From: an uncultured virus (IMG/VR IMGVR_UViG_3300022178_000001)
Taxonomy: Duplodnaviria > Heunggongvirae > Uroviricota > Caudoviricetes
DNA: 35,729 nt
Reading direction: 5' to 3' (one strand)
IMG/VR virus record: IMGVR_UViG_3300022178_000001
Shown in pieces: positions 15,601 through 31,796 of this stretch. The translations under genes were made by a program, and so were the position numbers. The notes under the pieces are model-generated. The model saw only the letters and a program-made list of their open reading frames with translations. It did no database searches and had not been told where the DNA came from. Each line of letters opens with the position of its first letter. Positions within the stretch are counted from its first letter, which is position 1.

Positions 15601-18600
15601 TCAAATACCAAAGCTTGGGTATCTTCTGGAGGTGTATCAATCAAAGATACATCATCTAATTCAGTTATACTAGTTATAGTAGATACGAACTTACCTTCCC
15701 AGAATTGACCATTCCATGTTAAAGCATGGGAGGGGGTAAGACCACTAGAAAAATCTACGTCGCTAAGGTCTGGCATAGTAGCTACGCCAGAAATACTGCC
15801 GAGTATTAATAGTTGTTGACTATTTGTTGCAATACCTACTAAGCCATAATCAGTTGTATTTGTCGTTAGTGTACCGTCAAAGTTCGCGTAGTAATAGGTA
15901 GCAGGAACTAATCCTGAGTATACGAATGGAGTAAGCCCCCCAAGAATAACAACTTCCCCAGTCTCTCCTTGAGTCATAGTACCCGCTGCGATACCTATCC
16001 ACTCACCTGCATCAGAACTAATAGCAGATTCACTTACATCGAATAGATGTACAGCTCCACGATCAATTGCAGGATTTTGCTGACTACCAGCGCTGAGATC
16101 ACTATAAGGAGCGCCTGCTATAGCTTTTCCTGCGGGGGTTATAGCAACAGCCGTTCCCATTCTTTCTCCGGAAGGAGATACATTGTATCCAGGGTTATCA
16201 AAACCTCCATAATAAACAGGGGGAGCAGCATTAGAGTATACATGAATTTTTCCGGAATCAGGATAACCCTCTTTGCCAGTTTCTGAGCCTATTACTATCT
16301 GGTACTCCCCAATAGCTACGGAAACGCCAAACCTATCACCTATTGCTTCTGGGCTTTGAATAGTATGTAGTAGGGCCCCTGTAGTAGCTGAAAAGATATA
16401 AACTATGCCTTGATTTGCATTGTATCCAGGTGCTCCGACTATTATTTTTTCTGGCCAGTAAGCTAGTACTGTTCCGAAGCCTTCTGAATCAATATTAGGA
16501 TTTACTAAAGTTGCGATACTAGCAGTAGTTACACGATTTCTTATATAGATTCTACCAGTACTTAGAGTACCTCCGGTGTCCTCGGAGGGAGCAGAAATAA
16601 TTACGGACGAAGGCGTGATACTAACTACAGAACCGAAAGCATCTCCAGCGGGGGTACCCTCATCGTTAGAATTTTCAAATATTTTACTAGGAGGAATAAT
16701 TGGCCATTCCTCCTCTTCTACGTCATATGAGTAACCATCAAGGTCATTAAAATCATATAAATAGGCTCTTCCCGTATTAAAGCTAGTAGGGCTATCGTAG
16801 CCTGGTGATCCGATTAAAATGGCAGTGTCATCTATAGATACAGACGCTCCGAAGTTGTCATTTGCATTTTGATTAAAAGGGCAGGGTATTATGTATACTA
16901 AACTACCAGTAGATATTCTAAAAACATATACTATGCCTGTCTGCACGGCTCCATTTATTGTTCCCTTAGGCGCACCTACTGCTAGGTAATCTCCGTAAAT
17001 ACTTATAGACTCTCCAAAGTATTGATTGGAAACATTTGCAATAACTTGGTAGCCCTCACGCGGGGGATAGAAAGTTCTAACAGGAGCGTCAGTAACTGCA
17101 TCATATACAGTTACAACTCCGAAGTAACTTCCAACACCCTGTGCTGAGGCTCCTGGAGCAGAGACTGCGTAATAATCACCCTGATGTGTAATAACTGAGC
17201 CAAATAACGCATAGTTACTTGGTACAGATGCAGGTATACTTGCAAGGAATGCGCCAATAGATATTTCTACATTTTTAAATTGTCCTGTATTTCCATATAG
17301 TACTATGCTTCCTTCAGTTATATTTTCGGAAGCTACTCCTGTAATTCTCTGTCCTTCGGGTAAATCTGTTGGTCTCCATGTTGCCCCATCGAATTGTAGT
17401 ACTTGATCTTCTAAAGGTGGGATAGTATCTAAGTCTACGTCTGTTAAATCATTTATTATAGCTACATTACTAGACCCCGTAGCTGCATTAACCCATGACT
17501 GGGCTACTCCATTCCAAGTTAGAACTTGCCCTGACTGAAGTAAATTAGGTACTGGTAAAAATACATCATCCAGCTCTCCAATATTTGAGACCCCGCCAGA
17601 AACTGCGCCTGTTACCCAGCCTGAACCATTCCAAACTAATCCATCTCCAACTTGTGGGGTAACACTTGTTACGTCGTTTAAATCATTAAGTACATTTACT
17701 TGATCAGCAGTATTAGACTCTACGTCACCTGTTATAAGTAGTGTATTTGGACTAAGCGCCTTTCCTATAATTCCATAAGGAGAAAGTGTGAGGGTATATC
17801 CTCCGTCTACTTGCAAATAATAATTACTGCCTGCTTCCAGCCCAAATAAATTTTTTGCTACTCCTCCGAATAGCGTAACGTTCCCAACCTCTCCATCAGC
17901 AATATCTTCAAACGCTATACCTATCCATGCGTCAGCATTGGTGGTAATTTGAGAATCAAAAGTTACAACAGCGCCAGAATTAAAATCACTACTAATTGTA
18001 TTTCTAACATAGGGAGTACCTACATGATATAAGTCATTAAAGCCCTGACCTCCAATAGCTACTGAGTAACCGAACTGCTCATTAGTAGAGTCCCCATATA
18101 TATTAGGATTAGAGAAGATAGCTTCTAATTGACCTGAAGTAGCATCCAGTAAATAAGCTTTACCAGCATTAGTATACTTCCCGCCAACATAGCCCTGCTC
18201 TTCATAAGTTGCTCCAGCTAAGAGCTTGCCCTCTTTCATATCTACGGACCAACCAAATCGATCTCCGGTTGTAGGGTTATTATAACTATTAGGATTAGTA
18301 ATTACAGTTCGGAAATCTAGTGTATTCAGATCCCATATAAATACTCTGCCCTGGTCGTACCCCTCAGGGTAATCTGTATCCGAATCATAAGATCCTATAG
18401 CTAAAAGATTTGGATAAACTTGATCCCACTTTAAAGCACTTGCGAAATTATAACTAAAGCCGCCACCTAATCCAGGATTTGCTATATAGGCTACTTGTAC
18501 AGGATCGATTTCCTCGTTAGAAATATCAAATATATATACGCCACCCTTGGTAGAACTTGGCCCTTCGTTCTTGCTAGCAACTGCAAGGTATTGTCCAGTA

Positions 18601-21600
18601 CTATTTAAAGCTACTTTCGTACCAAACTGGTCATTATATGAGCCGCCGGTCTCATTAGGATTTGTTATAATATGAGGAAATTGGGCCTCGCCAACAGCAG
18701 GAGACGGATTAACTATGTATACTACTCCGCTATTGATAGCTATGTTACCAGAATCAAAGGGAGCTCCGACTGCTAATCTTTCACCTCCAAGAGATATTGA
18801 ATGTCCAAATTGACTGTTATTGGGGCTATAAGACTGTACGGACCCAAATGTTGCTAGGCCGGGGTGTACTATTTGGCTAGTTATAGCATTAGTAGTACGA
18901 TTATAAAGATATACTGCTCCAGTTTGGTAGTTTAGTCCTGAATCTTCGAAAGGCGCACTAATCGCAAATAAATTACCATGTATTGCTAAGCTAAATCCAA
19001 ATCTATCATTTGCTGGGGAGGCGTTTATATTATTATTATTAATAGTTGCTTCTAGAAATCCAAGCGCATCATATACATATACTTTACCCGAGTCGATCTC
19101 GCCTGTCTCATCTTCTCTATCCGCCGATACGAGCAGCTTATCAGTACTTGCTGCAAGACTATAGGCAAAAAAGTCATTTGAAGCAGTACCAAAAGGAGTT
19201 GGATTTTCTTTGTACCAGGCAGGCTGAAAAGGAGACTGGCCTGTTCTACTAACAGAGCCATTCAAATTGATAGAAACTACCTCTCCCTGTAGAATGTCTC
19301 CTTCGGCTATAAAGTCTTCAATGCCTCCTGAGTGCCCGTTTCTAGGATACCATCTATTAATGGAGGAATCCCAGGTAAGTACTTGTAACTCTTTAGGAGG
19401 GTAAGAAATAACATTGACATCTACTAAATCGCCAATGAAAGCTGCGACAGCATCCCCTGTAGGTCCAGGAACCCAGTTACTGCCATCCCAAAATAAGCTT
19501 TCGCCAGCCTCAGGTACATTTCCTCCCGTAGTTGTATCTACATCTCCTAAAGAGCCTAAACTGATTGTATCAAGACTGGGAGACCCCGGTCTAAAGACGG
19601 AATCAATAGCATTCCATACTAGTGTTTCACCCTCTAAGGGATTATTACCAAGACTCGTAATGTCTACCTCATCTAAACCGCTTAAACTTGTTACTGTAAT
19701 GTTGGCAATGAGTTGAGGTTCCCACTTACTTGTAATAGAGTTATAAGCTATTACATCAGCCTCAGTTGGAGCCTGGGTTTGTAAATCTACATCTGTTAAA
19801 TCATCAAGTGAAGCAACCCTAGATACCGCCCCTGGAATCCATTTATCCTCCTCAAGATTATAAACTAAAACATCGTTACTTACTGGCGTAATCTCTTGTA
19901 AGTCTACATCTGTTAAATCATCAAGTATAAATACATTTGAAGTTCCAGTCTGTTGAGGTATCCATTTATCTAAAATAAAACTATAGACTAAAGAGTCTCC
20001 GTGCTCTAACCCCGCAGTATTAACATCACTTAACTCATTAAGAACAAAAGATCCTTGAGGAATATAATTCGCAAGAGCCCAATGAGTTCCAGTCCATTGT
20101 ATACTTTGACCAGGAGTAGGGGAGGCTACAGAAGTATCCGATAGCCCACCAAACGTAGTAATATTACTATATCCAATTGTTTTTGGAGACCATCTATTAT
20201 TTGCACTATCCCACACCAATCCTTGGTTATTAGCCGGAGGCTTAGAAACAGTATCCACATCTCGAATATCGTTTAAGTAGCTTACACCGGTCTCAGCGCT
20301 TACTACGTTACCTGTAATTAAAAGCTCAGTTTCTGCGGTAGCTTTACCCAAAACTCCGTAATCTGTTTCGGTAAGAGTTAAAAAGCCTCTACCATCTAAA
20401 TAATAGTTTTTATTAGTTTCCAGCCCTGATACAAATTTATTAACAGAACCTACTGTTGTAACAAGTACATCTTTATTATCTGCTACTAGTCTATCTTCTT
20501 CTACTATACCTACCCAATTGTCTGCATTACTAGTTAAGAATGAAGAACTTGAAAAAGTATGAATTTCTCCTACCCCTGCAATAGTTAAGCGAGGAGCTCC
20601 AATAATAGTATAGTCATTAGTTACTGCAAGACTGTAGCCCCAATTAATATTAGTGTCTGTAGGATTTTTAAACTCATTTAAGAATCTCCCAGTGTTTACA
20701 TCAAATATGTAAACAGTACCCCAGCTAGTGCCTATGGTTCTTTCATCAGTAGCTGATGCTATTATATAGTCGTTAGATATAGCTACTGTATTACCGAACT
20801 TATCTGCTCCTCCTGATATATTCCTATCTGGATTTGTTATAGTGTAGTTAAAGTCTCCGGTAACAAGGTTATATACAAATATTTTACCCCCTTCTGAATT
20901 AGGGGCTCCTACAACTAGCCTACCGCTAGTTGATATACCCATCGAATTACCAAAGTTCCCTTCAAAGTTATTCGGGCTGGTTAAGGTATAGAGTAATCCG
21001 GCTGTAGCTGCTTGGTATACTCTGACTTCATTATTTAAGGGATGGCCTATAGCTATGTAGCCAGAAGCACCTACAGCTACAGACTGGCCCCATCCTGTAA
21101 TAGAAGGAGTAGGGCTTTGAATAGAGTGTAGTAGGTTGCCTGTTGCAGGATTGAATATATAAACAACCCCCGTATTATTATCAGATAAATTTATAGGCTC
21201 TTCAGTTATAGCTGAGACAACAATATAATCGTTGGTAATTTGTACTCTATTACCAAATTGGTCATCTAGAGTGGACGTAGATAGATTAGGATTTTCAATA
21301 GTTTCTGATAATGTAAATCCAGGTAAATCATATATGTAAATTCGTCCAGCATTGCTATTATAGCCAGGAGCACCTACTACAAAGAAATTGTCTGAGATAG
21401 ATACTGATTCACCAAATTTTGTTGCAAGCCCTGGAGTTGGATTAGTAATGACCTGTAACAGTGAATTAGTAGAAGTATCGTATATTTCAATTTTACCCCC
21501 AGTAGTTGAGTTTTCAAACCCGGGAGCTCCAACAATATAGTAGTTATCTGAAACGTATACCGATTTTCCATAGTAGTCAGAAGCTGAAGAAGGAGTAGCT

Positions 21601-24600
21601 GTTGTGGTAAATAAGACTGATTCAGAACTAGAAACTTCTCCTACTTTCTCTACCTTTCCATCTGACCGAAGAGCAACTAAATCTCCTAGAACTAAGTCTT
21701 CGTGAGGTACATAGTGTGCCAAGCCTTGGCGCTCTGTAGGTCTCCACTGTCCTGTAGGCTCATCGTACTCTAAAGTATTTCTGCTCTGTGGAAGAACGGT
21801 TTGAAGGTCTACATCGCTTAAGACAGTTAGACCGATATCAATTACTGCCCCTTCTACGCTTCTAGTAATCCACATCTGTGTTTCTGGATCCCAGGATATA
21901 AAGTCCGCAGTATACGGATTTTCGAGGTTAACATCGTCTAGATTTTCTAGTTTAAGCCCAATTCCATAACCGTCATCATTATTAAATCGAGTTGTTATAA
22001 AACCACTACCGGTCCATTTTACAAATCTTGAAGTATTTGCTGTTCCAATAGGAACATCCGTAAAACCTCCAACAGGAAATTGATCTAACTCAAATACATT
22101 TAAGGCATTAAGATCTTCTAAGGCTCTTGGTATTTCAGCACTGTTCCAGCTACTACCGCTCCAAATCAGAGCATCTAATGTAGATGGGCTAGCGGCATTA
22201 ACATTTAATAAATCGCCAATCTCATCGGGAAAATTCTGAGCAGTCCACGCCGAACCATTATAAACAAGACCCTGGCCTGAAGTAGCGCTGAGTACACTAA
22301 CATTAGAAAGATCTGTAAGTTCTAAAGTGTTTACACTCTTGATAGTCTCAACTATATCTTTTTGTATCCACTGTCCGTTATTGCCTGCTAGTACCGAATT
22401 TTCTGCGACAGTACTATAATCAAAATCTTGTAAATCGTCAGCAGTCCAGGAGGGGGTTATGTTCTCCATTCGAATACCAAACTCTACATTATCTACATAT
22501 CGAAGAATTTGACCTGTATCACGATTGTCTATACGAACATCAGTTAGTGAATCAAGGGAAGTTGCAAGTTGAAGATCTTTAGTTGTCCATTTTTCAAGTT
22601 CTGCATCCCATACTAAAAGCTCTCCATCTCGAAGCAATCCTGGTTCAATAGCTGTATCTTTTAATTCATCTAAGCGAATATTTACTTCTATCGCTTTATC
22701 TACGCTTTCTCCGAAAGTGACAAAATCCCCGTGCTCTAAAACATCAATATTCTTGTTTACAGTAACATACAAAAGATTAATATCTATGCTTGTAACTTTA
22801 GGCGCATCAATAAGTCTTGGTGAGATTACATAATCACCAATTTTTACTTCGTCATCAATTTCGGACTGAACTCTTATAAGGGTCCCATTTGTTTGCCCCT
22901 TCGAGGCTTGATTTTCAAAGTATACTTCCTGTCCTACAGATAAAAGCTCTGCGGCGCGAGTGGGATTGGTAATATTAACAGAGTCAGTACTGCCGCCGTC
23001 AACCCCGTATATATAGACATACTCAACCTCACCAAGCTCATCGTATGCTATAATATTCATACCCGAGTCGACTAAGGGAAGACGATCCTCTGTGAAATTT
23101 ATTGTTACTCCGCCAGCACTAAAAGAAGCAATAGTCATAGGGCCTATGGGACCCGCGTCTTGGTCATCAAGAACTAAAGTGCCCTCCCCTCCTGTGGTCT
23201 TTACAGGTATAACTATATTAAAAGTTATTACTTCTCCGGGGATTACTTGAATTGGGTAGGATACTGTTAAACTTAAGCGATCTGCTGAAATACCCGTAAT
23301 AACAGGATATTCTGTAATGCTTGATACGTATACTGCAACGCCCGGTACCACGCCTTCGGGAAGAGCAGGTTGTGTAAGAATAGTATCATATTCTCCTGGA
23401 GACATAGTAGGAGATACTACTATTCCCTCTGTACCCGCTACGTTTTGAATAACAGGAGGGGTACCAAAAGCACAAACAGCTCCTTGAGGGATTGACACTG
23501 AGCGGGAAACCGTAACAGATAGGCGATCTTCAGCAATTGATAGTATAATTGGAAAAGGTTTCGGTAGTAAGGCAACGTTATCTACAATGTCACCTGGATG
23601 AACATTTCCTGAAATTACGTCGGTAAACCCAATTATTGTACTATTACTATAAGTTTGATCAACAATACCTTGCCCTGTCAAGATTGCGTCGTCTATACTA
23701 TCTCCCTCTTCAAGAGGAGGAATTACAATAGTATCGCCATCTTCTGTTTCAACAGTTCCCTCACTACTTCCTCCACCAGGAAGAGGCCCTACGGGGGAGC
23801 CCTCATTATTGCCACCACCACTACCGCCTCCGGAAACAGTACCAGGTACCCATTTCGCCGCCTCGCTATTCCATACTAGTGCCTGACCATTTATTGGAGC
23901 AGTAGCTGTTGTATCTACGTCGGAAAGACTGTTTAAGTTTCCTGCAATTGAAATAAAACTATTTACCCACTTTTGAGTGGTTCCGTTCCATACCAGTGCC
24001 TGACCTGTTATAGGGCTGGCCCCTATAACTGTATCTGGGAGCGCGGAGATTGGAGGTATTGAGGGCGCATTTGGTACCCATTTTTGACCCTGCCACTGCA
24101 AAAAATGGCCTGTGGATCTAGGGTACGATTGATCATCCATATCAACATCTAAAAGGTCTTCTAGTTTAGAGGTTAATTCGAGGGACTGAGACAACCATTG
24201 TCCGGCTTCGCTTGAATAAGTAAGCACATGTCTATCTTGCGGAATTAGGATATTAACGTCATTCAGCTCATTAATGCTTACGCCGATTTCGGCAATAATA
24301 TCATTAATAAGTTTTGGAACCCATTCTGTATTAAAGTCGTCCCATGCAAATAAATGAGAGTTTGGAATACCCGTATTGTAATTAGTAAAAGTATCTACAT
24401 CAGAAAGATTATTAATTTCTCCCTGTACCTCTGCGTAGGCTGGAACCCAATTTTGTTTATTAGTATTCCACTGCAAAAATTGTTGAGACTGAGGAGCTAC
24501 AGATTTTGTGTCTACGTCTTCAAGCTCATTTAAGCTTTTGGGTACACCACTAACATCTGGGTTTGGCTCAATATCTCCAGTAACTAATACTTTATTACCT

Positions 24601-26837
24601 GCAACAGCTATTCCTATAGCACCACTGCCCACATCACTAGTACGTAGAGCCCCTCTATATATACGAGAGTTATCAATATAAATTTTGGTTCCTGGTACTA
24701 GTACTCCCCCAATACCTCCTGCAAAAGAGGTTGCCTCGGAGGTTCCACCAAGAATAGTAATTTGTCCAGTATTCCACTCAGGAAAGCCACTCTGCGGGTT
24801 AATAGGAGAGCTAAAACTTTCGTCTGCTATGCCGAACCAATCTCTAATATTAGTTATAGGATTAGTACCAAAAGTAATAGCTTTAATACCGCCTGGCTGA
24901 GTTAGAGGAATAAGCATACGGCTTTCCTCTTTATTAGTTAGCAATACAGGCCATAGTTGGTCTGTAATCAAAAATTCAACGTTAGAGTCATCAGAAGCTT
25001 TAATTGCGTCGTCCGTATCTACAATAGGGTAGCCACCGAATTCGGAGAAAGTAAGAAGCGTAGAATGTAAAGATACATTCCCGAGTTGGTCTTCTCTTCC
25101 CCATACAATAGTAGCACCTCGGGTGTCTTGAGACCCTATAATTGCTGGATCTATATTACTCATCTTATAAGGAGTTTCTACAGAATCCTGGCCATTTTCA
25201 AAGGGATAGTGAGTGTATTGCGCGCCTGTATAGTTTGTGTTAGTAGTACCATTATTTGAGTTAGTAAATCGAGTTATCCATCCTTGAGCAGGTACAGTAT
25301 TTGTTCTTCTATAGGCTACCCAACATTCTGAACCACCCTTCATGAGAGTGACAAATGGGGTAGTCATATTATCCCAAATACCGCGCGGAGTTCTAAAAGT
25401 GAGGAACAAGCCACTGACGATAGTGACAAAAGACCACCCAGTACCAAGCTCGTCAATAAATACACTTACATGACGATTTCCGATACTATTGTAAACAGTA
25501 TGAATCTGATATACTTCTTTTGTCGTAAATGGAATAGGCGGCTGAAAAAGCAGGTCTAAGCCATCGAGTTCTGCCAATCTTCCCACACCAGTACCAAGAC
25601 TCTCTTGGTCCGCATAATGAAAGACAACATTTCCACTCGCTGTATCACAAGATACTGAATGAGTACCAATAGGGGAAGATAAGGAAAAGTCAATTGGAAA
25701 CTCAGACATAGTTACTGAGAAGCCTGCGAGAGTAATTACTCTTGCATACCCTATATTCGTAATTGAGTCTCTCCATGCAAATACTGTTCGTGTAGTTGCA
25801 ATATCGTAAGAGACTGAAAATTCTCCACCAATGTTTTCACCAAAGTAGTGTATAGTAGGGTCGAGAGTTATTTCTATGCCTTGGTCATCTAATTCCCCTA
25901 CTCGAAACTCTCCGTCTCCTGTAGTATCATTGATGTACGCAATAATATACTTTTCTTGGGCTGTGCACCATATTGAGTGAGATTGAGAGCCTACTGCGGC
26001 TCCGAGACTTATACTCTGCCCAAATTCAGGATCAGCATATTGAATTGGAAAAGCTACAGTTTTACTAGTATCCTGAAGTCCGATGGTAACAGCACGACCT
26101 GCACTAATAGTTTCTCCAGCCGCAGCATAGACTTCCATTTTTCCTACAGTAGATGGAGTTCCTGCTACCCAAGTGCCAGCATCATAAATTAAGCTTTCAC
26201 CATCAACAGGAGGATTAGTTGTAAGATCTACATCTTGTAAACCATCAAGGTTTAAAATTGGAGTTGCTGGTACCCATTCAGAGCCATTAAACGAAAGAAG
26301 ATCGTTTGTAATGGGAGGAGTAGTTGTAAGGTCTACATCTGTAAGGCCTGCAAGGTAAATATTACTAAGTGCGCCTGTAGTGACAGTCGTCCACATCTCG
26401 CTATCAGCATCGTAAGCAAGAATCTGACCGTCAGAAACGGAAGATACGTCCACATCTTGAAGAAAAGACATGGTAGGAACTGTAGGGATATACTCACCTA
26501 AGCCATCGTAAACTAATACGCCTGTATATGTTCCAGACGCAGAAACGTCTGTGAGGTCGCTGGTAGAATAAGGATTTGCTGCATGATATGCGGCAATGTA
26601 TGAAGTGATCGCAAATTCAGTAGGAACTACCTGCTCAGGAGTTTGAGAGGATAGAGTAACATCATTTGTAAAGGCGATTACATCTAGAACTCCATCTGTA
26701 AGAGTTCCAAAAGTGAGTGTACCAAACTGAGCGTCATCGTTAGCTTCATACTTATTTGCATTTAAATAAGTAAAGTTTTCATCGAGCTCATCAAAAGTAA
26801 GTTCAGTACCTTTTACAAGGCGGAGGGTTAAAGCCAT
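12630..26837 (-). CDS. Giant modular fibre/adhesin with FG-GAP beta-propellers and LxDLxDV repeats
   Basis: 4735 aa. N-terminal LRLVKGTELTFDELDENF fibre-type motif; dozens of L..L.DV...G..L.(W/Y)....W repeats; FG-x-VAI...VGAP...G.VY(I/V)F blades; five copies of a split W.G.A...GL..G..YY...G module. Confidence 0.85.
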   Translation of the reverse strand: MALTLRLVKGTELTFDELDENFTYLNANKYEANDDAQFGTLTFGTLTDGVLDVIAFTNDVTLSSQTPEQVVPTEFAITSYIAAYHAANPYSTSDLTDVSASGTYTGVLVYDGLGEYIPTVPTMSFLQDVDVSSVSDGQILAYDADSEMWTTVTTGALSNIYLAGLTDVDLTTTPPITNDLLSFNGSEWVPATPILNLDGLQDVDLTTNPPVDGESLIYDAGTWVAGTPSTVGKMEVYAAAGETISAGRAVTIGLQDTSKTVAFPIQYADPEFGQSISLGAAVGSQSHSIWCTAQEKYIIAYINDTTGDGEFRVGELDDQGIEITLDPTIHYFGENIGGEFSVSYDIATTRTVFAWRDSITNIGYARVITLAGFSVTMSEFPIDFSLSSPIGTHSVSCDTASGNVVFHYADQESLGTGVGRLAELDGLDLLFQPPIPFTTKEVYQIHTVYNSIGNRHVSVFIDELGTGWSFVTIVSGLFLTFRTPRGIWDNMTTPFVTLMKGGSECWVAYRRTNTVPAQGWITRFTNSNNGTTNTNYTGAQYTHYPFENGQDSVETPYKMSNIDPAIIGSQDTRGATIVWGREDQLGNVSLHSTLLTFSEFGGYPIVDTDDAIKASDDSNVEFLITDQLWPVLLTNKEESRMLIPLTQPGGIKAITFGTNPITNIRDWFGIADESFSSPINPQSGFPEWNTGQITILGGTSEATSFAGGIGGVLVPGTKIYIDNSRIYRGALRTSDVGSGAIGIAVAGNKVLVTGDIEPNPDVSGVPKSLNELEDVDTKSVAPQSQQFLQWNTNKQNWVPAYAEVQGEINNLSDVDTFTNYNTGIPNSHLFAWDDFNTEWVPKLINDIIAEIGVSINELNDVNILIPQDRHVLTYSSEAGQWLSQSLELTSKLEDLLDVDMDDQSYPRSTGHFLQWQGQKWVPNAPSIPPISALPDTVIGASPITGQALVWNGTTQKWVNSFISIAGNLNSLSDVDTTATAPINGQALVWNSEAAKWVPGTVSGGGSGGGNNEGSPVGPLPGGGSSEGTVETEDGDTIVIPPLEEGDSIDDAILTGQGIVDQTYSNSTIIGFTDVISGNVHPGDIVDNVALLPKPFPIILSIAEDRLSVTVSRSVSIPQGAVCAFGTPPVIQNVAGTEGIVVSPTMSPGEYDTILTQPALPEGVVPGVAVYVSSITEYPVITGISADRLSLTVSYPIQVIPGEVITFNIVIPVKTTGGEGTLVLDDQDAGPIGPMTIASFSAGGVTINFTEDRLPLVDSGMNIIAYDELGEVEYVYIYGVDGGSTDSVNITNPTRAAELLSVGQEVYFENQASKGQTNGTLIRVQSEIDDEVKIGDYVISPRLIDAPKVTSIDINLLYVTVNKNIDVLEHGDFVTFGESVDKAIEVNIRLDELKDTAIEPGLLRDGELLVWDAELEKWTTKDLQLATSLDSLTDVRIDNRDTGQILRYVDNVEFGIRMENITPSWTADDLQDFDYSTVAENSVLAGNNGQWIQKDIVETIKSVNTLELTDLSNVSVLSATSGQGLVYNGSAWTAQNFPDEIGDLLNVNAASPSTLDALIWSGSSWNSAEIPRALEDLNALNVFELDQFPVGGFTDVPIGTANTSRFVKWTGSGFITTRFNNDDGYGIGLKLENLDDVNLENPYTADFISWDPETQMWITRSVEGAVIDIGLTVLSDVDLQTVLPQSRNTLEYDEPTGQWRPTERQGLAHYVPHEDLVLGDLVALRSDGKVEKVGEVSSSESVLFTTTATPSSASDYYGKSVYVSDNYYIVGAPGFENSTTGGKIEIYDTSTNSLLQVITNPTPGLATKFGESVSISDNFFVVGAPGYNSNAGRIYIYDLPGFTLSETIENPNLSTSTLDDQFGNRVQITNDYIVVSAITEEPINLSDNNTGVVYIFNPATGNLLHSIQSPTPSITGWGQSVAVGASGYIAIGHPLNNEVRVYQAATAGLLYTLTSPNNFEGNFGNSMGISTSGRLVVGAPNSEGGKIFVYNLVTGDFNYTITNPDRNISGGADKFGNTVAISNDYIIASATDERTIGTSWGTVYIFDVNTGRFLNEFKNPTDTNINWGYSLAVTNDYTIIGAPRLTIAGVGEIHTFSSSSFLTSNADNWVGIVEEDRLVADNKDVLVTTVGSVNKFVSGLETNKNYYLDGRGFLTLTETDYGVLGKATAETELLITGNVVSAETGVSYLNDIRDVDTVSKPPANNQGLVWDSANNRWSPKTIGYSNITTFGGLSDTSVASPTPGQSIQWTGTHWALANYIPQGSFVLNELSDVNTAGLEHGDSLVYSFILDKWIPQQTGTSNVFILDDLTDVDLQEITPVSNDVLVYNLEEDKWIPGAVSRVASLDDLTDVDLQTQAPTEADVIAYNSITSKWEPQLIANITVTSLSGLDEVDITSLGNNPLEGETLVWNAIDSVFRPGSPSLDTISLGSLGDVDTTTGGNVPEAGESLFWDGSNWVPGPTGDAVAAFIGDLVDVNVISYPPKELQVLTWDSSINRWYPRNGHSGGIEDFIAEGDILQGEVVSINLNGSVSRTGQSPFQPAWYKENPTPFGTASNDFFAYSLAASTDKLLVSADREDETGEIDSGKVYVYDALGFLEATINNNNINASPANDRFGFSLAIHGNLFAISAPFEDSGLNYQTGAVYLYNRTTNAITSQIVHPGLATFGSVQSYSPNNSQFGHSISLGGERLAVGAPFDSGNIAINSGVVYIVNPSPAVGEAQFPHIITNPNETGGSYNDQFGTKVALNSTGQYLAVASKNEGPSSTKGGVYIFDISNEEIDPVQVAYIANPGLGGGFSYNFASALKWDQVYPNLLAIGSYDSDTDYPEGYDQGRVFIWDLNTLDFRTVITNPNSYNNPTTGDRFGWSVDMKEGKLLAGATYEEQGYVGGKYTNAGKAYLLDATSGQLEAIFSNPNIYGDSTNEQFGYSVAIGGQGFNDLYHVGTPYVRNTISSDFNSGAVVTFDSQITTNADAWIGIAFEDIADGEVGNVTLFGGVAKNLFGLEAGSNYYLQVDGGYTLTLSPYGIIGKALSPNTLLITGDVESNTADQVNVLNDLNDVTSVTPQVGDGLVWNGSGWVTGAVSGGVSNIGELDDVFLPVPNLLQSGQVLTWNGVAQSWVNAATGSSNVAIINDLTDVDLDTIPPLEDQVLQFDGATWRPTDLPEGQRITGVASENITEGSIVLYGNTGQFKNVEISIGAFLASIPASVPSNYALFGSVITHQGDYYAVSAPGASAQGVGSYFGVVTVYDAVTDAPVRTFYPPREGYQVIANVSNQYFGESISIYGDYLAVGAPKGTINGAVQTGIVYVFRISTGSLVYIIPCPFNQNANDNFGASVSIDDTAILIGSPGYDSPTSFNTGRAYLYDFNDLDGYSYDVEEEEWPIIPPSKIFENSNDEGTPAGDAFGSVVSITPSSVIISAPSEDTGGTLSTGRIYIRNRVTTASIATLVNPNIDSEGFGTVLAYWPEKIIVGAPGYNANQGIVYIFSATTGALLHTIQSPEAIGDRFGVSVAIGEYQIVIGSETGKEGYPDSGKIHVYSNAAPPVYYGGFDNPGYNVSPSGERMGTAVAITPAGKAIAGAPYSDLSAGSQQNPAIDRGAVHLFDVSESAISSDAGEWIGIAAGTMTQGETGEVVILGGLTPFVYSGLVPATYYYANFDGTLTTNTTDYGLVGIATNSQQLLILGSISGVATMPDLSDVDFSSGLTPSHALTWNGQFWEGKFVSTITSITELDDVSLIDTPPEDTQALVFESLSGKWKATDIGYSNVFAFNDLNDVSISNVAVGQSLSWNGSQWVPETFSQVSTLDELTDVNTNVFKTDRDILEWDGEALEWTVARNVFGNFINIEAEGSIAAGEPVYITNNSKVAQIRGTEEITGTAVFENDFFQDISLSGYGRSIDIYEDLIVAGNPEFDLPGITNTGKAFVYSASSGELLQVLYPPTSYTYQQFGNTVATNGDLVAIIAAENPYANGKGKVHIYKGTTGEYLRSIEHPDPSRTTSNGFGYHQKSIDFQGNFLLVGDKNYRDPISNASLGRAFLFNAYTGNLVHTFEHPNSSAVNSRSFGTQVAMLDDGSKILIYDVLQDGLNSATAYIYDYAYDLVSTIEVPHYNADTIAINSNYLIVASTYSGYLYIHSLLDGTLLYTSGSAYLDYGQKSLSANEKTLVVTYGSNKGFRVFDIASRILLASETTSSVGSCASLFKTRLVYSTGYQAITYNLNDISISSKAADWVGISEGAYLAGDTTTIITGSGFVSALSGLIPGANYYVAVDGTLFPGATGFGKIGRAVSETELLVSSNTSNIDLDSDSTASLIAGIGDLTDVDTFTLFPTDGQYLQYNSVTSTWSPGDVSLPSLTDISLADIENNDLLLYSEGIWSNGTLATTNLSDIDTTVAPTASQTLIWNENTSKWEAGIPERALDSLSNMGSSVSTPTTGQILVYNTIGDQWSAVDNEFSLDGLTDVNLEGVTDNQFLQYNSTSSEWEPGTVATAVSELTDVDLTGVTEGQYLVYNDQDKWVPTTIEFAAALTDLTDVNAVGATQGQGLIYDTGTNKFELAIVGTSNVDTLEDLSNVSIPTTPNNGDVLKYNGNTDTWEATPTPSPAVVYATRNSFPAIGNLGDLSFAQDTGVLYVWEGTIWYNLKRTNAFYLVRAGQFTGPLTGTQLFQPQQTITLHEIRAQVDQPSGASLIFSVMRSGAEVQQFVIPPAAPFIEAAFTAGVVVGPADEITVDIISGPGTNLSIKFIYS

Positions 26838-27583: not shown

Positions 27584-27612
27584 ATTATACAGTAGGAGAT
27601 ATCCGTTGTCAA
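27584..27612 (-). promoter_or_regulatory. Sigma70 promoter of terS-adhesin operon
   Basis: TTGACA-17 bp-TATAAT, exact consensus. Confidence 0.85.
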
Positions 27613-27627
27613 GAAATATTTTTAAGA

Positions 27628-27655
27628 TGGTGGAGGCCCGAAGGCCCCCAGACCA
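27628..27655 (-). terminator. cUUCGg hairpin after barrel gene (terminator or stability hairpin)
   Basis: GGGGGCC-TTCG-GGCCTCC on minus strand; weak U tail. Confidence 0.55.
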
Positions 27656-27656
27656 A

Positions 27657-28235
27657 TTAGAAGTTGTAAGAGAGTTCTACAACGTGTGTTTCTTCCGCTA
27701 CACCAGTATCAAACTTGTATCCGAGGGAGAAGTGCTCAAATGAACGTGCAATTCCTACACCGGAATGGTCAGTACCTGCGAAGGCAGTAACATCGAAGTC
27801 CGCAATTTTTCTAGAAACGCTTCCCACGTAGTATTCAGCCTGTGTTTCCAGGTCATGATAGACGTATGCAGAAAACATACCATAACTTGCGCCAAAGTAG
27901 AGCTCCTGTGCTTCGTCGCTCAACTCTACCGCGTCACCGTAGTAGTCATACTGTAGGTATCCAAAGTCAACCGACAGGGAATCCGTAAGTTTGGGGGCGA
28001 AACCAACGAGGTAGTTTGCCTCCGTAGAAGCTTCAACACCTTTCAAGGTTGACGCCCAGAAAGTTCCATACAATCCGGCATCACTTTTCGCTGTAAGAGA
28101 GACTTGGAGCGCGGGGTCTTCCTCCGTTTGCGTTACTCCTCGAAAAACATATTGTGAACTTAAACCAATGCTTCCAGAAACTTCAGCAAGTGCTTCGCCT
28201 CCGAAAATCAACAGTCCCATAATTAAATACTTCAT
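27657..28235 (-). CDS. TorF/Gcw_chp (TIGR02001)-like outer-membrane beta-barrel protein
   Basis: Signal peptide, SQYVFRGVTQT...PALQ, GLYGTFWAS, DFGYLQYDY, ELYFGASY, C-terminal LSYNF (BAM signal). Confidence 0.85.
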   Translation of the reverse strand: MKYLIMGLLIFGGEALAEVSGSIGLSSQYVFRGVTQTEEDPALQVSLTAKSDAGLYGTFWASTLKGVEASTEANYLVGFAPKLTDSLSVDFGYLQYDYYGDAVELSDEAQELYFGASYGMFSAYVYHDLETQAEYYVGSVSRKIADFDVTAFAGTDHSGVGIARSFEHFSLGYKFDTGVAEETHVVELSYNF

Positions 28236-28295
28236 TAACTTCTCCTTTTTTACTTTCTCGAGAAATTCATAGTTTCTCCATTATTATTAAAAAAT

Positions 28296-28324
28296 AGTAT
28301 ATAATAAAATTTTTCGAAAGTCAA
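28296..28324 (-). promoter_or_regulatory. Sigma70 promoter for barrel gene
   Basis: TTGACT-17 bp-TATACT. Confidence 0.75.
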
Positions 28325-28576
28325 GAACAATTTTTCCAATCTTCCGAAGTCTCTTTCCCTCTTCCAGATAGTTTTTTCTCGTTTTTTCGAAATTGGTTAA
28401 TTTTTTCCAGGGGACTTTCAAAAAATACGAAAAAACGCACCCGTATCAGCTTTTTCGATTTCGATTTTTTGGATTTCTCTTTGTGGTTTACGTGAGGATG
28501 GGCGCGAGCGCGACCATTATCACTGGGTCTTATAACCGCCCCCGCCTACTATCATTCACAATGATGTAGCAAAAAG

Positions 28577-28593
28577 TTGGCACGGTCTATGCA
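28577..28593 (+). promoter_or_regulatory. Sigma54 (-24/-12) promoter motif 1
   Basis: TTGGCACGGTCTATGCA, GG-N10-GC. Confidence 0.7.
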
Positions 28594-28602
28594 TAGAGGG
28601 GG

Positions 28603-28640
28603 CGCACCACAATGGTGCAACGACGCACCATAATAGGGCG
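28603..28640. promoter_or_regulatory. Tandem NtrC-type boxes
   Basis: CGCACCACAATGGTGCA (28603-28619) and CGCACCATAATAGGGCG (28624-28640), 21 bp apart; consensus TGCACCA-N3-TGGTGCA. Confidence 0.75.
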
Positions 28641-28644
28641 GCCC

Positions 28645-28657
28645 TAACCTGTTGATA
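28645..28657 (-). promoter_or_regulatory. IHF site 1
   Basis: Reverse complement TATCAACAGGTTA matches WATCAANNNNTTR. Confidence 0.7.
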
Positions 28658-28700
28658 TTGTTAGAGTTTTTCTAAATTACTATCATATTGATTGAAATCG

Positions 28701-28717
28701 TGCTCCATTATGGTGCA
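28701..28717. promoter_or_regulatory. NtrC-type box 3
   Basis: TGCTCCATTATGGTGCA, about -110 from motif-2 start site. Confidence 0.75.
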
Positions 28718-28759
28718 GCCACACCCCTAAAATAAGGCTCTATCCTGGGCAGGCGCGCG

Positions 28760-28772
28760 TAACCTATTGATT
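28760..28772 (-). promoter_or_regulatory. IHF site 2
   Basis: Reverse complement AATCAATAGGTTA matches WATCAANNNNTTR, about -50 from motif-2 start site. Confidence 0.75.
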
Positions 28773-28790
28773 TATAAGGGAAAGCAAAAG

Positions 28791-28807
28791 TTGGCACGAC
28801 TCCTGCA
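28791..28807 (+). promoter_or_regulatory. Sigma54 promoter motif 2, upstream of first pre-early gene
   Basis: TTGGCACGACTCCTGCA, GG-N10-GC; predicted TSS ~28818, then RBS and ATG 28847. Confidence 0.8.
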
Positions 28808-28846
28808 TATATATAGATAGAAAGAAAAATTAAAGGATATAAAATC

Positions 28847-29041
28847 ATGACAAAATATACACTCTGGAGTGAGGTACAACGCGCTGATTTCTTGCCAGAA
28901 GACGGCAAGAGCTATCGCAAAATCGGGCAATATGTTGTTGCCTGTTCATTCGATGCTATAGATGCGGCCGCGGTCGCTGGCTACAATGTCAAGGCAGGCG
29001 ATAAAATATCGCTGGCTAACGGCTTCGAGATTACGCTATGA
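28847..29041 (+). CDS. Hypothetical pre-early protein
   Basis: 64 aa with AAGGA RBS. Confidence 0.7.
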   Translation: MTKYTLWSEVQRADFLPEDGKSYRKIGQYVVACSFDAIDAAAVAGYNVKAGDKISLANGFEITL

Positions 29042-29148
29042 TAGCTGAAGCCGCTGTTCAAGCAGGCTTCGGTATTCTTGGCATGATAATTGCCTTTGCA
29101 ATTATCTTGCCACTTGCAGGGTTACTCCTGCTCAACCTTATACCTTAA
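29038..29148 (+). CDS. 36-aa membrane peptide
   Basis: MIAEAAVQAGFGILGMIIAFAIILPLAGLLLLNLIP; ATGA overlap with upstream gene. Confidence 0.55.
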   Translation: MIAEAAVQAGFGILGMIIAFAIILPLAGLLLLNLIP

Positions 29149-29185
29149 TCGCATATCGTTATGCTATTTCGGTATATAAAAAGAC

Positions 29186-29214
29186 TGGACAATTACAGGA
29201 TACCCCTGTAAAAT
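29186..29214 (+). promoter_or_regulatory. Sigma70 promoter with overlapping palindrome, upstream of A2-like gene
   Basis: TGGACA-17 bp-TAAAAT; TTACAGG-N5-CCTGTAA at 29193-29211. Confidence 0.65.
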
Positions 29215-29260
29215 CCTACCCATGCAATCAAGCATAACACTACTAGAAAGGAAATAAATT

Positions 29261-29557
29261 ATGTCTACTTACACTGATAAAATGGTCAAGCGAATGCGCG
29301 ATATGGCCCCGCTTGATCTTGATAAGGCTAAAAAACTTGCCGACGAATTCGGTTCTGTATCTTATCGCTCTATCATCGCAAAGGCTAAAAGCGAGGGCGT
29401 TGACTATATCGCTAAAGCTCCTGCTTCAAAGCGGCCCAAAGGCCCAACCAAGCGCGAGCTAGTTGGTGCTATCGAAAAGTCTCTTGGACTGCCTCAGTCA
29501 GATCGAGAAAACTTAACGGTTGACGCTCTTAACATGGTTTTAGCTAATCTTGGATAA
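29261..29557 (+). CDS. T5 A2-like DNA-binding protein
   Basis: LA.EFG..SYRSIIAKA...Y..K...G.TK..LV..I resembles recalled T5 A2 (IAKAVG..SPVSVRSKL..AY.K...RK...VR.I); pre-early context. Confidence 0.65.
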   Translation: MSTYTDKMVKRMRDMAPLDLDKAKKLADEFGSVSYRSIIAKAKSEGVDYIAKAPASKRPKGPTKRELVGAIEKSLGLPQSDRENLTVDALNMVLANLG

Positions 29558-29756
29558 GATCGCAATAGGTTGCGGTTGGATTGGGGCGGCTTGTATGTCA
29601 GTCGCCCCTTTCATTATCGACACGCCAGCAGGTAAGGCTCTGGCAATTGTAGGGCTTGGACTCTTAACGGTGCAGGCTATTTGCAACCGGACAATAAATC
29701 TGGTATGCTTAAATCTCATTTCAATACTTGGATTTTCTTATGCACTTTATTTTTGA
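29550..29756 (+). CDS. Small multi-TM membrane protein
   Basis: 68 aa, 2-3 hydrophobic stretches, overlaps both neighbours. Confidence 0.6.
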   Translation: MDKIAIGCGWIGAACMSVAPFIIDTPAGKALAIVGLGLLTVQAICNRTINLVCLNLISILGFSYALYF

Positions 29757-30201
29757 TTTAGATGAAACGGTTATCGACTCAAGCCACCGCCAAGGTGAAA
29801 CGCTTGCGGAATGGATAGCCTTAAACACTCCCGAAAATGTGGCTAAGGATACGCTTTTGCCTCTGGCCGACCAGATGCAAAAAGTTTATGATGCTGGTCA
29901 CACCGTGACGGTTTGCACTAGCAGGGTATTATCTGACCACGATTTTGATAGCTTTCGAGCCTTGGGATTACGATTCGATAACATGCTTTCACGCAGTCTA
30001 TTAGATGGCAATGAAAACCCAGGATCTCTAAAATTGAGATTGTTGCAAGGCCTTGCAAAACGTCAAGGTATATCATGGGCGCGCTTTTGTCGAACGGCTA
30101 TGATGTTCGATGATAATCAAGACGTTATTGATACGCTAAAAAACAATAGCCTCCGCGTTATTAATCCGGTAAACTACAACTCACGAAATAAGGCGGTATA
30201 A
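29740..30201 (+). CDS. dmp: HAD-family deoxynucleoside-5'-monophosphatase (T5 Dmp-like)
   Basis: FDLDETVIDSSHR, DTLLPL, VCTSR, K, MFDDN; matches recalled T5 Dmp (WDLDGTIINSFHR, DTLLPL, ICTAR). Confidence 0.8.
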   Translation: MHFIFDLDETVIDSSHRQGETLAEWIALNTPENVAKDTLLPLADQMQKVYDAGHTVTVCTSRVLSDHDFDSFRALGLRFDNMLSRSLLDGNENPGSLKLRLLQGLAKRQGISWARFCRTAMMFDDNQDVIDTLKNNSLRVINPVNYNSRNKAV

Positions 30202-30205
30202 AAAA

Positions 30206-30937
30206 ATGACTAAACAATATTTTGCTACAATCGACAGCGAGACAACTCAAAACGAAAAAGTTGCGGATTTTGCTTGCGTTATCACCGACCGGAAAGGCCG
30301 CATTCATGCACAGTGCGCTGTTTTGGTTGACGGTATTTTTACCGATTCCGAAAATCATCCGCTCTTTTTTGATAAATCAGCGCCTCGCGATGCTCTATGG
30401 TCTAAGGCTTCGGCGGATCGTCGTTATGCCAAATATTCTAAAATGGTCGCAGATGGCTCGCGGATGGTCGCCTCGGTCGCGGCGATTAATCGCTGGCTTG
30501 AACGTGCCGTCGGAAAATATGACCCGATTTTAACCGCGTATAATCTTGCTTTCGATGCTGGCAAAATGTCAAATACTGGCATTGATCATACTATTTTTTC
30601 TCGCCGCTTTTGCCTCTGGCAGACGGCTTGCGTTAAATGGGCTTCAACAAATCAATACAAGAATTTTGTGATGCAAAACCATGCCTTTAATGCGCCCACA
30701 AAATTCGGCAACATGACCTATAAAACCAATGCCGAGGTGATGGCGCGATTCGTTACAGGTCAAGACTTGCCAGATGAACCCCACACGGCGTTGGAAGATA
30801 TTATCGATTATGAATTGCCAATTTTAAATGCGCTGGTAAAGCGCGGCAAAATGCAAGATATTATCGATTCGGGTGTGGGCTATAGCTGGAGAGATTACCA
30901 AGCAAAAAATCATTTTACTGCAAAAAAGGTTGCATGA
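30206..30937 (+). CDS. DEDDh 3'-5' exonuclease
   Basis: ExoI IDSETT, ExoII AYNLAFD, ExoIII HTALED. Confidence 0.88.
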   Translation: MTKQYFATIDSETTQNEKVADFACVITDRKGRIHAQCAVLVDGIFTDSENHPLFFDKSAPRDALWSKASADRRYAKYSKMVADGSRMVASVAAINRWLERAVGKYDPILTAYNLAFDAGKMSNTGIDHTIFSRRFCLWQTACVKWASTNQYKNFVMQNHAFNAPTKFGNMTYKTNAEVMARFVTGQDLPDEPHTALEDIIDYELPILNALVKRGKMQDIIDSGVGYSWRDYQAKNHFTAKKVA

Positions 30938-30938
30938 T

Positions 30939-31046
30939 ATGAAAACGAAAATTCTAGCACTTGCGTTTAAACTTTATATTGCCTATTCCATCACCGCCGA
31001 TTTTCTGTTAATCTGTGGCATTATCTACTTAATCATTGGGGCTTAA
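30939..31046 (+). CDS. 35-aa membrane peptide
   Basis: MKTKILALAFKLYIAYSITADFLLICGIIYLIIGA; AAGGT RBS; exactly fills the intergenic gap. Confidence 0.6.
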   Translation: MKTKILALAFKLYIAYSITADFLLICGIIYLIIGA

Positions 31047-31047
31047 C

Positions 31048-31662
31048 ATGAATCAAATTGAGACTTTACAGGCTGAGTTAAATGAGATTGTCGAAGGGTT
31101 GACAGGGCCGGTTGCGGTTCTGTTAGAAGGGCGCGACACTGCCGGAAAATCCAGCACGATTCGCGAGGCCACGCATTATTTGCCCATGAATCGCTTTTCT
31201 GTTCATTTGAGCAAAAAGCCTAGCAAGCGCACCATGAAAAATTGGCTTGCTTATTGGGCGCACAAAATGCCACGCGGAAATCAAATCGTTTTTTATGATC
31301 GCTCATGGTATTCTCGGGCGATGGTTCAGCGCTTGAATGGCTGGTGCTCACCTAAGCAATACGACAATTTTATCAAATCACACAAAATCTGGGAACGTGA
31401 TCAGAATGTCACTATGATAAAAATGTGGTTATCGATTACTGAAGCTGAACAACACCGGCGAATTGAAAAGCGCAAAAAATCACCCTTGACCTATTGGAAA
31501 TTTTCGCCCAATGATGAGCGCGCGCTTTCCTACTATGATGAGATGACCGCGCTTAAAAATGCTTGCATCGATGACGATTGGATTCATGTTGACTACAATA
31601 ATAAAAAGACTGGTATTGAGAATTTTTTGCGAGAATTAATATTTGCATTAGGAGAACAATAA
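31048..31662 (+). CDS. ppk2: Polyphosphate kinase 2
   Basis: Walker A EGRDTAGK, Walker B YDRSWY, KMWLSI...EQ..R, PL..WKFSP.D. Confidence 0.93.
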   Translation: MNQIETLQAELNEIVEGLTGPVAVLLEGRDTAGKSSTIREATHYLPMNRFSVHLSKKPSKRTMKNWLAYWAHKMPRGNQIVFYDRSWYSRAMVQRLNGWCSPKQYDNFIKSHKIWERDQNVTMIKMWLSITEAEQHRRIEKRKKSPLTYWKFSPNDERALSYYDEMTALKNACIDDDWIHVDYNNKKTGIENFLRELIFALGEQ

Positions 31663-31671
31663 TCGTGCCAA
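31655..31671 (-). promoter_or_regulatory. Third, convergent sigma54-like motif
   Basis: AAAAGTTGGCACG shared with motifs 1 and 2; -12 element is GT instead of GC. Confidence 0.5.
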
Positions 31672-31680
31672 CTTTTTCCG

Positions 31681-31736
31681 CGTTTCACGTGAAACATTTT
31701 TTAGCGTCAAAATTTTGGCGCGTTTCACGTGAAACA
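31681..31736. promoter_or_regulatory. Two parS-consensus palindromes
   Basis: CGTTTCACGTGAAACA at 31681-31696 and 31721-31736; each 15/16 to TGTTTCACGTGAAACA. Confidence 0.75.
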
Positions 31737-31796
31737 TTTTTTGTGAAAAAAACGAAAAAAAGCTTGACATGCCGAAAATTTCGGCGCGGGGGCGCC

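Follow-up and report, generated by a model that had tools for sequence, protein, structure and literature searches.

Virulent phages are held to express their early genes from strong, unconditional sigma-70 promoters, and a promoter of the sigma-54 type needs an ATP-driven activator to fire. The Escherichia coli glnAp2 promoter combines GG..GC at -24/-12 with 17-bp NtrC palindromes upstream, and the IHF-assisted sigma-54 promoters glnHp2 and nifH have an activator box, an IHF bend near -50 and the -24/-12 element, in this order. We analysed a cluster of sites with the same features and the same order in a 35,729-bp stretch of DNA from an uncultured virus of the Caudoviricetes (IMG/VR record IMGVR_UViG_3300022178_000001), the whole of which is called the window hereafter. 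The cluster begins at position 28577 and spans 230 bp. An earlier note on this DNA had proposed that it is an NtrC/IHF-assisted sigma-54 promoter region, placed at the head of the pre-early genes of a T5-like phage, and that it tunes or gates takeover of the host. T5 itself is described as using sigma-70 for all three of its gene classes (PMC7472727), and a literature search, with subscription journals largely outside its coverage, returned no account of sigma-54 promoters or of NtrC sites in virulent phages, whether T5-like or not.

With a probability of about 0.5, we consider that the sites for host factors in these 230 bp form a genuine cluster maintained by selection, and that the second of its two promoter-type sites (P2) would serve as an enhancer-dependent sigma-54 promoter for two clade-specific genes, of 64 and 36 amino acids (aa), with an accessory, host-conditional role.

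In both promoter-type sites, the GG at -24 is separated from the GC at -12 by the fixed 10 nt. The exact core TGGCAC-N6-TGCA is found at 28578-28593 and 28792-28807, on the plus strand in both cases, and these are the only zero-mismatch matches in 35,729 bp. With up to one mismatch there are five matches against 1.27 expected, a number reached in one of 100 shuffled sequences. When scored with the extended consensus YTGGCACGR-N3-TTGCW (14 scored positions), P1 (28577-28593, plus strand) and P2 (28791-28807, plus strand) each reach 13/14, and their predicted transcription starts (+1) are near 28604 and at 28818, respectively. Three sites of the window score 13/14, and none did in each of 30 shuffles. 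Sites of at least 12/14 number seven, five of them within the inferred 3.3-kb terminal repeat described below. A general use of sigma-54 promoters by this phage was also considered and rejected, since in each record the exact sites are confined to this one region.

Three NtrC-type boxes accompany these promoter-type sites. A scan with GCACCA-N3-TGGTGC, in which up to two mismatches were allowed, matched at 28604 (0 mismatches), 28625 (2) and 28702 (1) and nowhere else in the window. The expected number was 0.61, and three matches were reached in none of 100 shuffles. Compared with the published 17-bp NtrC consensus TGCACCAnnnTGGTGCA (PMC8743547), box 1 (28603-28619) and box 3 (28701-28717) have one mismatch each and fit the palindrome. 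Box 2 (28624-28640) has four mismatches and a good left half only, which makes it a half-site; no strand is assigned to any of the boxes. Thus, the three boxes of the earlier note are all present above chance, the first two being spaced by 21 bp as it had described, but the middle one is not a full site. Relative to P2, the boxes are centred at -207 (box 1), -186 (box 2) and -109 (box 3). The usual enhancer range for two oligomerising sites is about -100 to -140, and no partner box is found 32 bp from box 3.

The glnAp2 promoter of E. coli, scanned with the same script, gave similar values. Its NtrC sites have one and two mismatches and its sigma-54 site two, compared with one each for boxes 1 and 3 and one each for P1 and P2. 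The proximal NtrC site (site 2) of glnAp2 is 81 nt from its promoter, and box 3 is 82 nt from P2. In contrast, the best two boxes are 98 bp apart in the window and 32 bp apart in glnAp2, and the E. coli glnA upstream region has no IHF consensus site at one mismatch or fewer, whereas the window has such sites between boxes and promoter.

The IHF consensus WATCAANNNNTTR is matched exactly at 28645-28657 (site 1) and 28760-28772 (site 2), on the minus strand in both cases, with centres at -167 and -52 from P2. Their location between the boxes and P2 and the invariance of their consensus positions in relatives are as expected of sites for looping, and site 2 belongs to a longer block common to distant relatives. 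Downstream of P2, an AAAGGA ribosome-binding site is present 9 nt ahead of the ATG at 28847, and the predicted +1 of P2 is 29 nt ahead of the same ATG. The two sigma-54 motifs (28577 and 28791) and the two IHF sites (28645 and 28760) of the earlier note were thus all recovered, the former above the shuffled control. The canonical geometry that it had proposed for the second motif was also confirmed, with the box at -109, IHF at -52, +1 at 28818, the ribosome-binding site and the ATG at 28847. Motifs and spacing together support an NtrC/IHF-assisted sigma-54 architecture.

The terminases place the source, a marine phage, among the T5-like phages. TerL shares 51% identity with its counterparts in Vibrio T5-like phages and 47% with that of Pectobacterium phage My1, and TerS has 37-45% identity to small terminases of T5-like phages; all cultured relatives found in these comparisons infect Gammaproteobacteria. 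The first ~45 nt of T5 and My1, which are annotated physical ends, align to 28499-28543 of the window (plus strand) and to the same spot in six relatives (alignment A1). The invariant columns of this alignment are GTCT..T.ACCGCC, and in the window the signature consists of a variable box followed by AACCGCCCCC at 28534-28543. One of the relatives (L038) and the My1 end have a common block of 27/28 nt by manual count. At 31764-31790 (plus strand), TTGACA and the ~20 nt after it align with the sequences annotated as repeat ends in T5 and My1 (alignment A3). Homology at both ends suggests that the window holds a terminal repeat of ~3.3 kb, from about 28500 to 31790, which would include a homologue of the T5 pre-early protein Dmp. 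The cluster would then be located ~80-310 bp inside the left end, with P1 ~79 bp from the end of the DNA. The annotation of the T5 record marks the left-end repeat as the first to enter, and the corresponding end of the window phage is probably the first to enter as well. The placement at the head of the pre-early module is supported by the Dmp homologue and the T5/My1 terminal signatures.

Contig ends were judged by eye; several contigs break 80-500 nt upstream of the 64-aa gene rather than at the predicted terminus. Assemblies of this region are collapsed or fragmented: two near-identical public viral contigs break at ~28837-28959 (G001 stops near 28959, and G002 begins near 28837), and several metagenome contigs break 80-130 nt upstream of the 64-aa gene. 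The breaks near 28837-28959 may reflect the polymorphism between variants A and B described below, or repeated promoter copies. Just outside the inferred left end, 28300-28480 is T-rich, with repeated TTTTTCGAAA, several inverted repeats and a CCAAAGT.GTACGTG block common to relatives. This stretch is possibly a piece of the terminase cutting signal. Just inside the right repeat end, two GTTTCACGTGAAAC palindromes (31682-31695 and 31722-31735) flank a GCGTCAAAATTTTGGCGC palindrome. The GTTTCACGTGAAAC palindrome is presumably a chromosomal parS/ParB site, and a clade of relatives with 85% identity retains one copy of it (L085, near 8411).

We compared the region among relatives at two levels. 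The search for TerS relatives in viral contigs gave at least 587, of which 80 were kept. The terminal skeleton is common to nearly all of them that have enough flanking sequence, and the first promoter after it is mostly of the sigma-70 consensus. An inward sigma-54 site near this end occurs in the clade of the window, in the 85%-identity clade and in two contigs that are less closely related, L049 and L071. In the 85%-identity clade, IHF is at -49 and GTCA-N6-TGAC palindromes are at -100 and +19 of the sigma-54 site. L049 and L071 have 12/12 sigma-54 cores with the IHF block ~150 nt upstream, and a tandem duplicate is present in L071. Six distinct inward sites all fit the extended consensus (YTGGCACGR-N3-yTGCW) and differ in their 4-nt spacers. 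The IHF block is also retained in relatives with sigma-70 promoters only (L061 and L075), unlike at glnHp2 and nifH, so that it may also serve the DNA end.

At closer range, we collected 5 viral and 31 metagenomic loci with a gene for the 64-aa protein and used the 26 with at least 300 nt upstream, plus the window. Ten were dropped, either for their short upstream sequence (L094, L102, L103, L117, L118, L124, L126-L128) or as part of the same contig as L003 (L095). Of the 23 distinct sequences obtained, the distant L125 and L129 were set aside and 21 were aligned. P1 is present in all 21, with variation limited to the spacer and -12-flank positions. The full cassette (variant A) is found in 14 of the 21. 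The box 1 core GCACC..GGTGC and IHF site 2 are invariant in all 14, as are the GG and GC of the sigma-54 sites. The left half of box 2 is a perfect TGCACCA in 10 of them, and the sole substitution in IHF site 1 falls in its N4 part. The version of the cassette that matches best is that of the window. In variant A, 6/88 consensus-specified positions vary compared with 37/214 others (Fisher one-sided p = 0.011), a footprint test that rests on few substitutions in related sequences.

The arrangement of boxes and sigma-54 sites also recurs elsewhere. Eight other viral contigs carry an exact NtrC box with an exact sigma-54 core 55-85 nt after it, and the control with the reversed box gave none. One of the eight is a T5-like relative whose TerL is 59% identical and which has a Dmp homologue; its two motifs are free of mismatches, are separated by 70 nt and lie among small early-type genes. 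Together with the glnAp2-like match, these pairs strengthen our view that boxes and sigma-54 sites are parts of one element. A phage-encoded activator, the other candidate considered, was not found in the records of relatives, which include fragments: the PF00158 activator domain was detected in 0/5 of them, including a 98%-complete genome of 95.8 kb, and the HTH_8 domain in 0/4. Hence, an activator of the host would be needed.

From these sites we infer binding, transcription and the identity of the activator as follows. Host sigma-54 polymerase would occupy P1 and P2 of the entering DNA as closed complexes, and IHF would bend the DNA upstream of P2 at -52. A host enhancer-binding protein at box 3, possibly with boxes 1 and 2 brought in by the second bend, would then open P2. 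This activator would most likely be phosphorylated NtrC, and the signal nitrogen limitation. P2 would transcribe the 64-aa and 36-aa genes, perhaps with read-through into the pre-early operon that contains Dmp; no terminator-like site was found in 29041-29260. The core pre-early genes would be transcribed from their own sigma-70-type promoter at 29186-29214 (plus strand; TGGACA-17-TAAAAT, 10/12), which the earlier note had also described and which is conserved in the 85%-identity clade. With this promoter in place, the module would tune an accessory function rather than gate infection. The idea that it gates takeover is further weakened by the absence of the cassette from seven of the 21 distinct close relatives and of the 64-aa gene altogether from the 85%-identity clade. 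Part of the earliest gene expression of this phage thus probably depends on the physiological state of the host.

The cluster lies within a 610-bp gap between divergent gene runs. The plus-strand side has small genes, coding for the 64-aa orphan, a 36-aa membrane-type open reading frame (ORF), a 98-aa protein, a 68-aa membrane protein, a HAD phosphatase, a 243-aa protein and the polyphosphate kinase PPK2. The 64-aa gene (28847-29041, plus strand), downstream of P2, encodes a protein with a conserved core, ACSFDAIDA, and no family match, and its AlphaFold model is uninformative (pLDDT 62, pTM 0.39). The 36-aa ORF (29038-29148, plus strand) holds an inverted pair of sigma-54-like sites, and the part with the pair is much more conserved in DNA than its 5' third. 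Its variable columns are distributed over the three codon positions as 18, 12 and 16, with no third-position bias, and the ORF may be secondary to the DNA element. The 98-aa protein (29261-29557, plus strand) is the product of the first family-wide pre-early gene. It resembles the DNA-binding protein A2 of T5 weakly (hhalign E 0.0025, probability 12%, 87 colinear columns; pairwise E 0.045 over 18 residues), and because it has no Pfam match even at E 10, homology with A2 is kept as no more than a lead. The HAD phosphatase (29728-30201, plus strand; PHROG 415) is the homologue of T5 pre-early dmp, with tblastn matches to the dmp region of T5 (E 2e-7, 35% over 85 aa) and to My1 (E 6e-5). We also considered whether this region might specify a riboswitch or a small RNA, and dropped the idea, as a search of 27600-29400 against Rfam gave nothing relevant (one miRNA match, E 0.73) and the 246-nt leader of P1 folds no better than shuffles (z -0.52).

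PPK2 (31036-31662, plus strand; Pfam E 9e-37) is encoded inside the inferred first-entering repeat, and several relatives share it at 66-67% identity. On the minus-strand side is the structural and packaging module, with a Gcw_chp/TorF-type porin moron, the small terminase, a 4,735-aa protein, the large terminase, the portal and a protease-capsid fusion. The outer-membrane-porin-like moron (27657-28235, minus strand) is an insertion that separates the small terminase from the end of the DNA, has its own sigma-70-type promoter (28324-28296) and is missing from the 85%-identity clade. The single ORF of 4,735 aa (12630-26837, minus strand) contains many repeated beta-propeller-like and fibre-like segments, and its large size is unusual for a T5-like phage.

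Several observations weigh against P2 as an NtrC-activated promoter. First, variant B (7/21) has P1 but no NtrC boxes, IHF site 1 or P2; instead, a sigma-70-like extended -10 promoter precedes the 64-aa gene, and two of these sequences also have GTCAA-type palindromes. The comparison of variants suggests that the window has the layout of the 85%-identity clade plus an inserted cassette of ~200 nt (P1, box 1, box 2, IHF site 1 and box 3). Conservation in relatives therefore holds for the inward sigma-54 site, which recurs across lineages, but the NtrC boxes and P2 are found in 14/21 only. Even within variant A, P2 reads TGGCAT rather than TGGCAC in 9/14 relatives and box 3 has a second mismatch in 8/14, which indicates that P2 and box 3 are not under strict selection. 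Second, box 1 is placed just 19 nt past P1, which is not an enhancer geometry, and an activator bound to the boxes at +7 and +28 of P1 would be likelier to block P1 than to activate it. Third, in the comparison with shuffled sequence the sigma-54 and NtrC-type motifs exceed chance, but the IHF consensus alone does not, with five matches against 3.13 expected and five reached in 16 of 100 shuffles. Fourth, sigma-54-like sites also occur as inverted pairs and on the opposite strand. Fifth, other lineages have different palindromes in the equivalent slots, some of them beside sigma-70 promoters. In L076, whose TerS is 69% identical, four NtrC-like GCACC-N5-GGTGC boxes are found in the first ~150 nt (2630-2761), one of them in the slot of the terminal variable box, and they accompany a sigma-70 promoter and no sigma-54 site.

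Finally, no host was identified, so that no particular NtrC or RpoN can be named. Homologues of the porin-type moron were on phage-size contigs, or were ~38% matches in Xanthomonadales, and the best genomic matches of PPK2 (36-38%) were in unrelated metagenome-assembled genomes. A blastn search of 28200-29600 against cultured phages gave no match.

The distribution of sigma-54-like sites suits a landing pad as well as promoters. According to this alternative, which we regard as rather unlikely, host sigma-54 polymerase, IHF and NtrC would bind the entering end mainly for a purpose other than transcription, such as to anchor or shield the DNA that is transferred first, to pause transfer, to insulate transcription units or to titrate host factors as a decoy, and transcription would be secondary. 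In its favour, five of the seven sites are in the 3.3-kb repeat, including a face-to-face pair at 29078-29094 (plus strand) and 29097-29113 (minus strand) and a third site at 31655-31671 (minus strand), which points inward from the far repeat end. The pair lies inside the 36-aa ORF, forms a 15-nt inverted repeat and has a plus-strand site that reads TTGGCACGATAATTGCC (13/14) in 14/21 distinct relatives; the far-end site has GT in place of GC at -12 and is missing from the 85%-identity clade. L049, L071 and a cultured Vibrio phage, vB_ValS_X1, have similar face-to-face pairs in their non-coding DNA. My1 and Vibrio phage Ceto have one exact sigma-54 core per copy of the terminal repeat, in non-coding DNA and oriented against the annotated genes. 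Boxes that resemble DnaA-, LexA- and Fur-type sites are present near the sigma-54 sites of My1, Ceto and vB_ValS_X1. The parS-type palindromes at the other repeat end, and the NtrC boxes that abut sigma-54 sites in several of the eight contigs, also fit binding without transcription. However, P2 is placed as an mRNA promoter, with its +1 29 nt ahead of an ATG equipped with a ribosome-binding site and with canonical distances to IHF and box, and natural variants replace it with a sigma-70-like promoter ahead of the same 64-aa gene, as is expected of a promoter. We know of no mechanism for anchoring by sigma-54 polymerase. Near the sigma-54 sites of the cultured phages, we also observed seven co-oriented repeats containing TGCACC in Ceto (L132, 154-309) and co-oriented GAATCCGCACTCACA repeats in vB_ValS_X1 (L135, 650-1150).

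Alternatively, the palindromes might bind another protein, be it a different host enhancer-binding protein or one of the phage or the virion, and their likeness to the enterobacterial NtrC box would be convergent or due to a related helix-turn-helix of the Fis type. The variety of palindromes in these slots is consistent with this possibility. GTCAA-N4-6-TTGAC is found in the 85%-identity clade, L097, L107 and L125, and resembles a motif proposed for FleQ (PMC6120874). GGTAATATTACC occurs in L038, L049 and L075, beside sigma-70 promoters in L038 and L075, and L076 combines its boxes with a sigma-70 promoter. The 98-aa protein, with its weak lead to A2, would be a candidate. However, the clade with other palindromes retains this protein at 86% identity, and host or virion proteins alone are on hand at time zero. 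In addition, the match to the specific 17-bp NtrC consensus is as good as that of glnAp2, exact pairs of NtrC box and sigma-54 core occur in eight other viral contigs against none with reversed boxes, and neither HTH_8 nor an activator domain was detected in the records of relatives. A protein other than NtrC thus seems doubtful to us. Lastly, chance motifs or a functionless, decaying relic of captured host DNA would agree with an IHF consensus that is not enriched, with the degraded P2 and box 3 of many relatives and with a dispensable cassette, but are very improbable given the shuffle controls, the persistence of the sigma-54 site in several lineages despite a variable spacer, the footprint test and the recurrence in other viral contigs.

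More speculatively, T5-like phages may build their first injected bases as an exchangeable array of sites for global regulators of the host, through which the state of the host would be read. The array would comprise docking sites for sigma-54 polymerase and sites for NtrC, IHF and ParB (parS), with Fur-, LexA- or DnaA-type sites elsewhere. Closed complexes of sigma-54 polymerase would form a checkpoint before commitment, and the NtrC cassette would be one interchangeable sensor. We put this forward tentatively.

If P2 is indeed an NtrC-activated sigma-54 promoter, a lytic phage would have a conditional switch tied to the nitrogen status of its host built into the DNA that enters first, and such a switch would explain the modularity of the region between close relatives. 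The exact sigma-54 sites in the terminal repeats of Ceto and My1 make the sigma-54 part of this proposal testable in culture. Genetic data on a T5-like Salmonella phage show that it infects rpoN, glnDLG and himAD mutants poorly; the same source attributes the impairment to RpoS activity and glutamine limitation rather than to phage promoters, and reports that the same mutants affect an unrelated phage (PMC8744999). The link is possible, and we take these data as a pointer rather than as support.

Compared with known systems, the region resembles the first-step-transfer repeat of T5 in its terminal signatures, its dmp homologue, the possible A2-like protein beside a small membrane protein and its non-coding DNA rich in protein-binding repeats. 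It differs in the size of the repeat (~3.3 kb compared with 10.2 kb in T5), in the direction of the pre-early genes, which run inward from the end in the window and toward the end in T5 and My1, and in its exact sigma-54 cores, none of which is present in the T5 repeat. In comparison with glnAp2, the element of the window is carried by a lytic phage, at the end of its DNA, and has two promoter copies and one box that abuts P1. A parallel among phages is that of cyanophages with PhoB-binding pho boxes and NtcA sites, which are also lytic phages with sites for a host nutrient regulator ahead of their own genes. Those genes, however, use the main sigma factor, whereas the window phage would need sigma-54 and an ATP-dependent activator, and would have them act on the first-entering DNA. 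Overall, the element has the make-up of a familiar type of switch, found where none was expected, and is modular and accessory.

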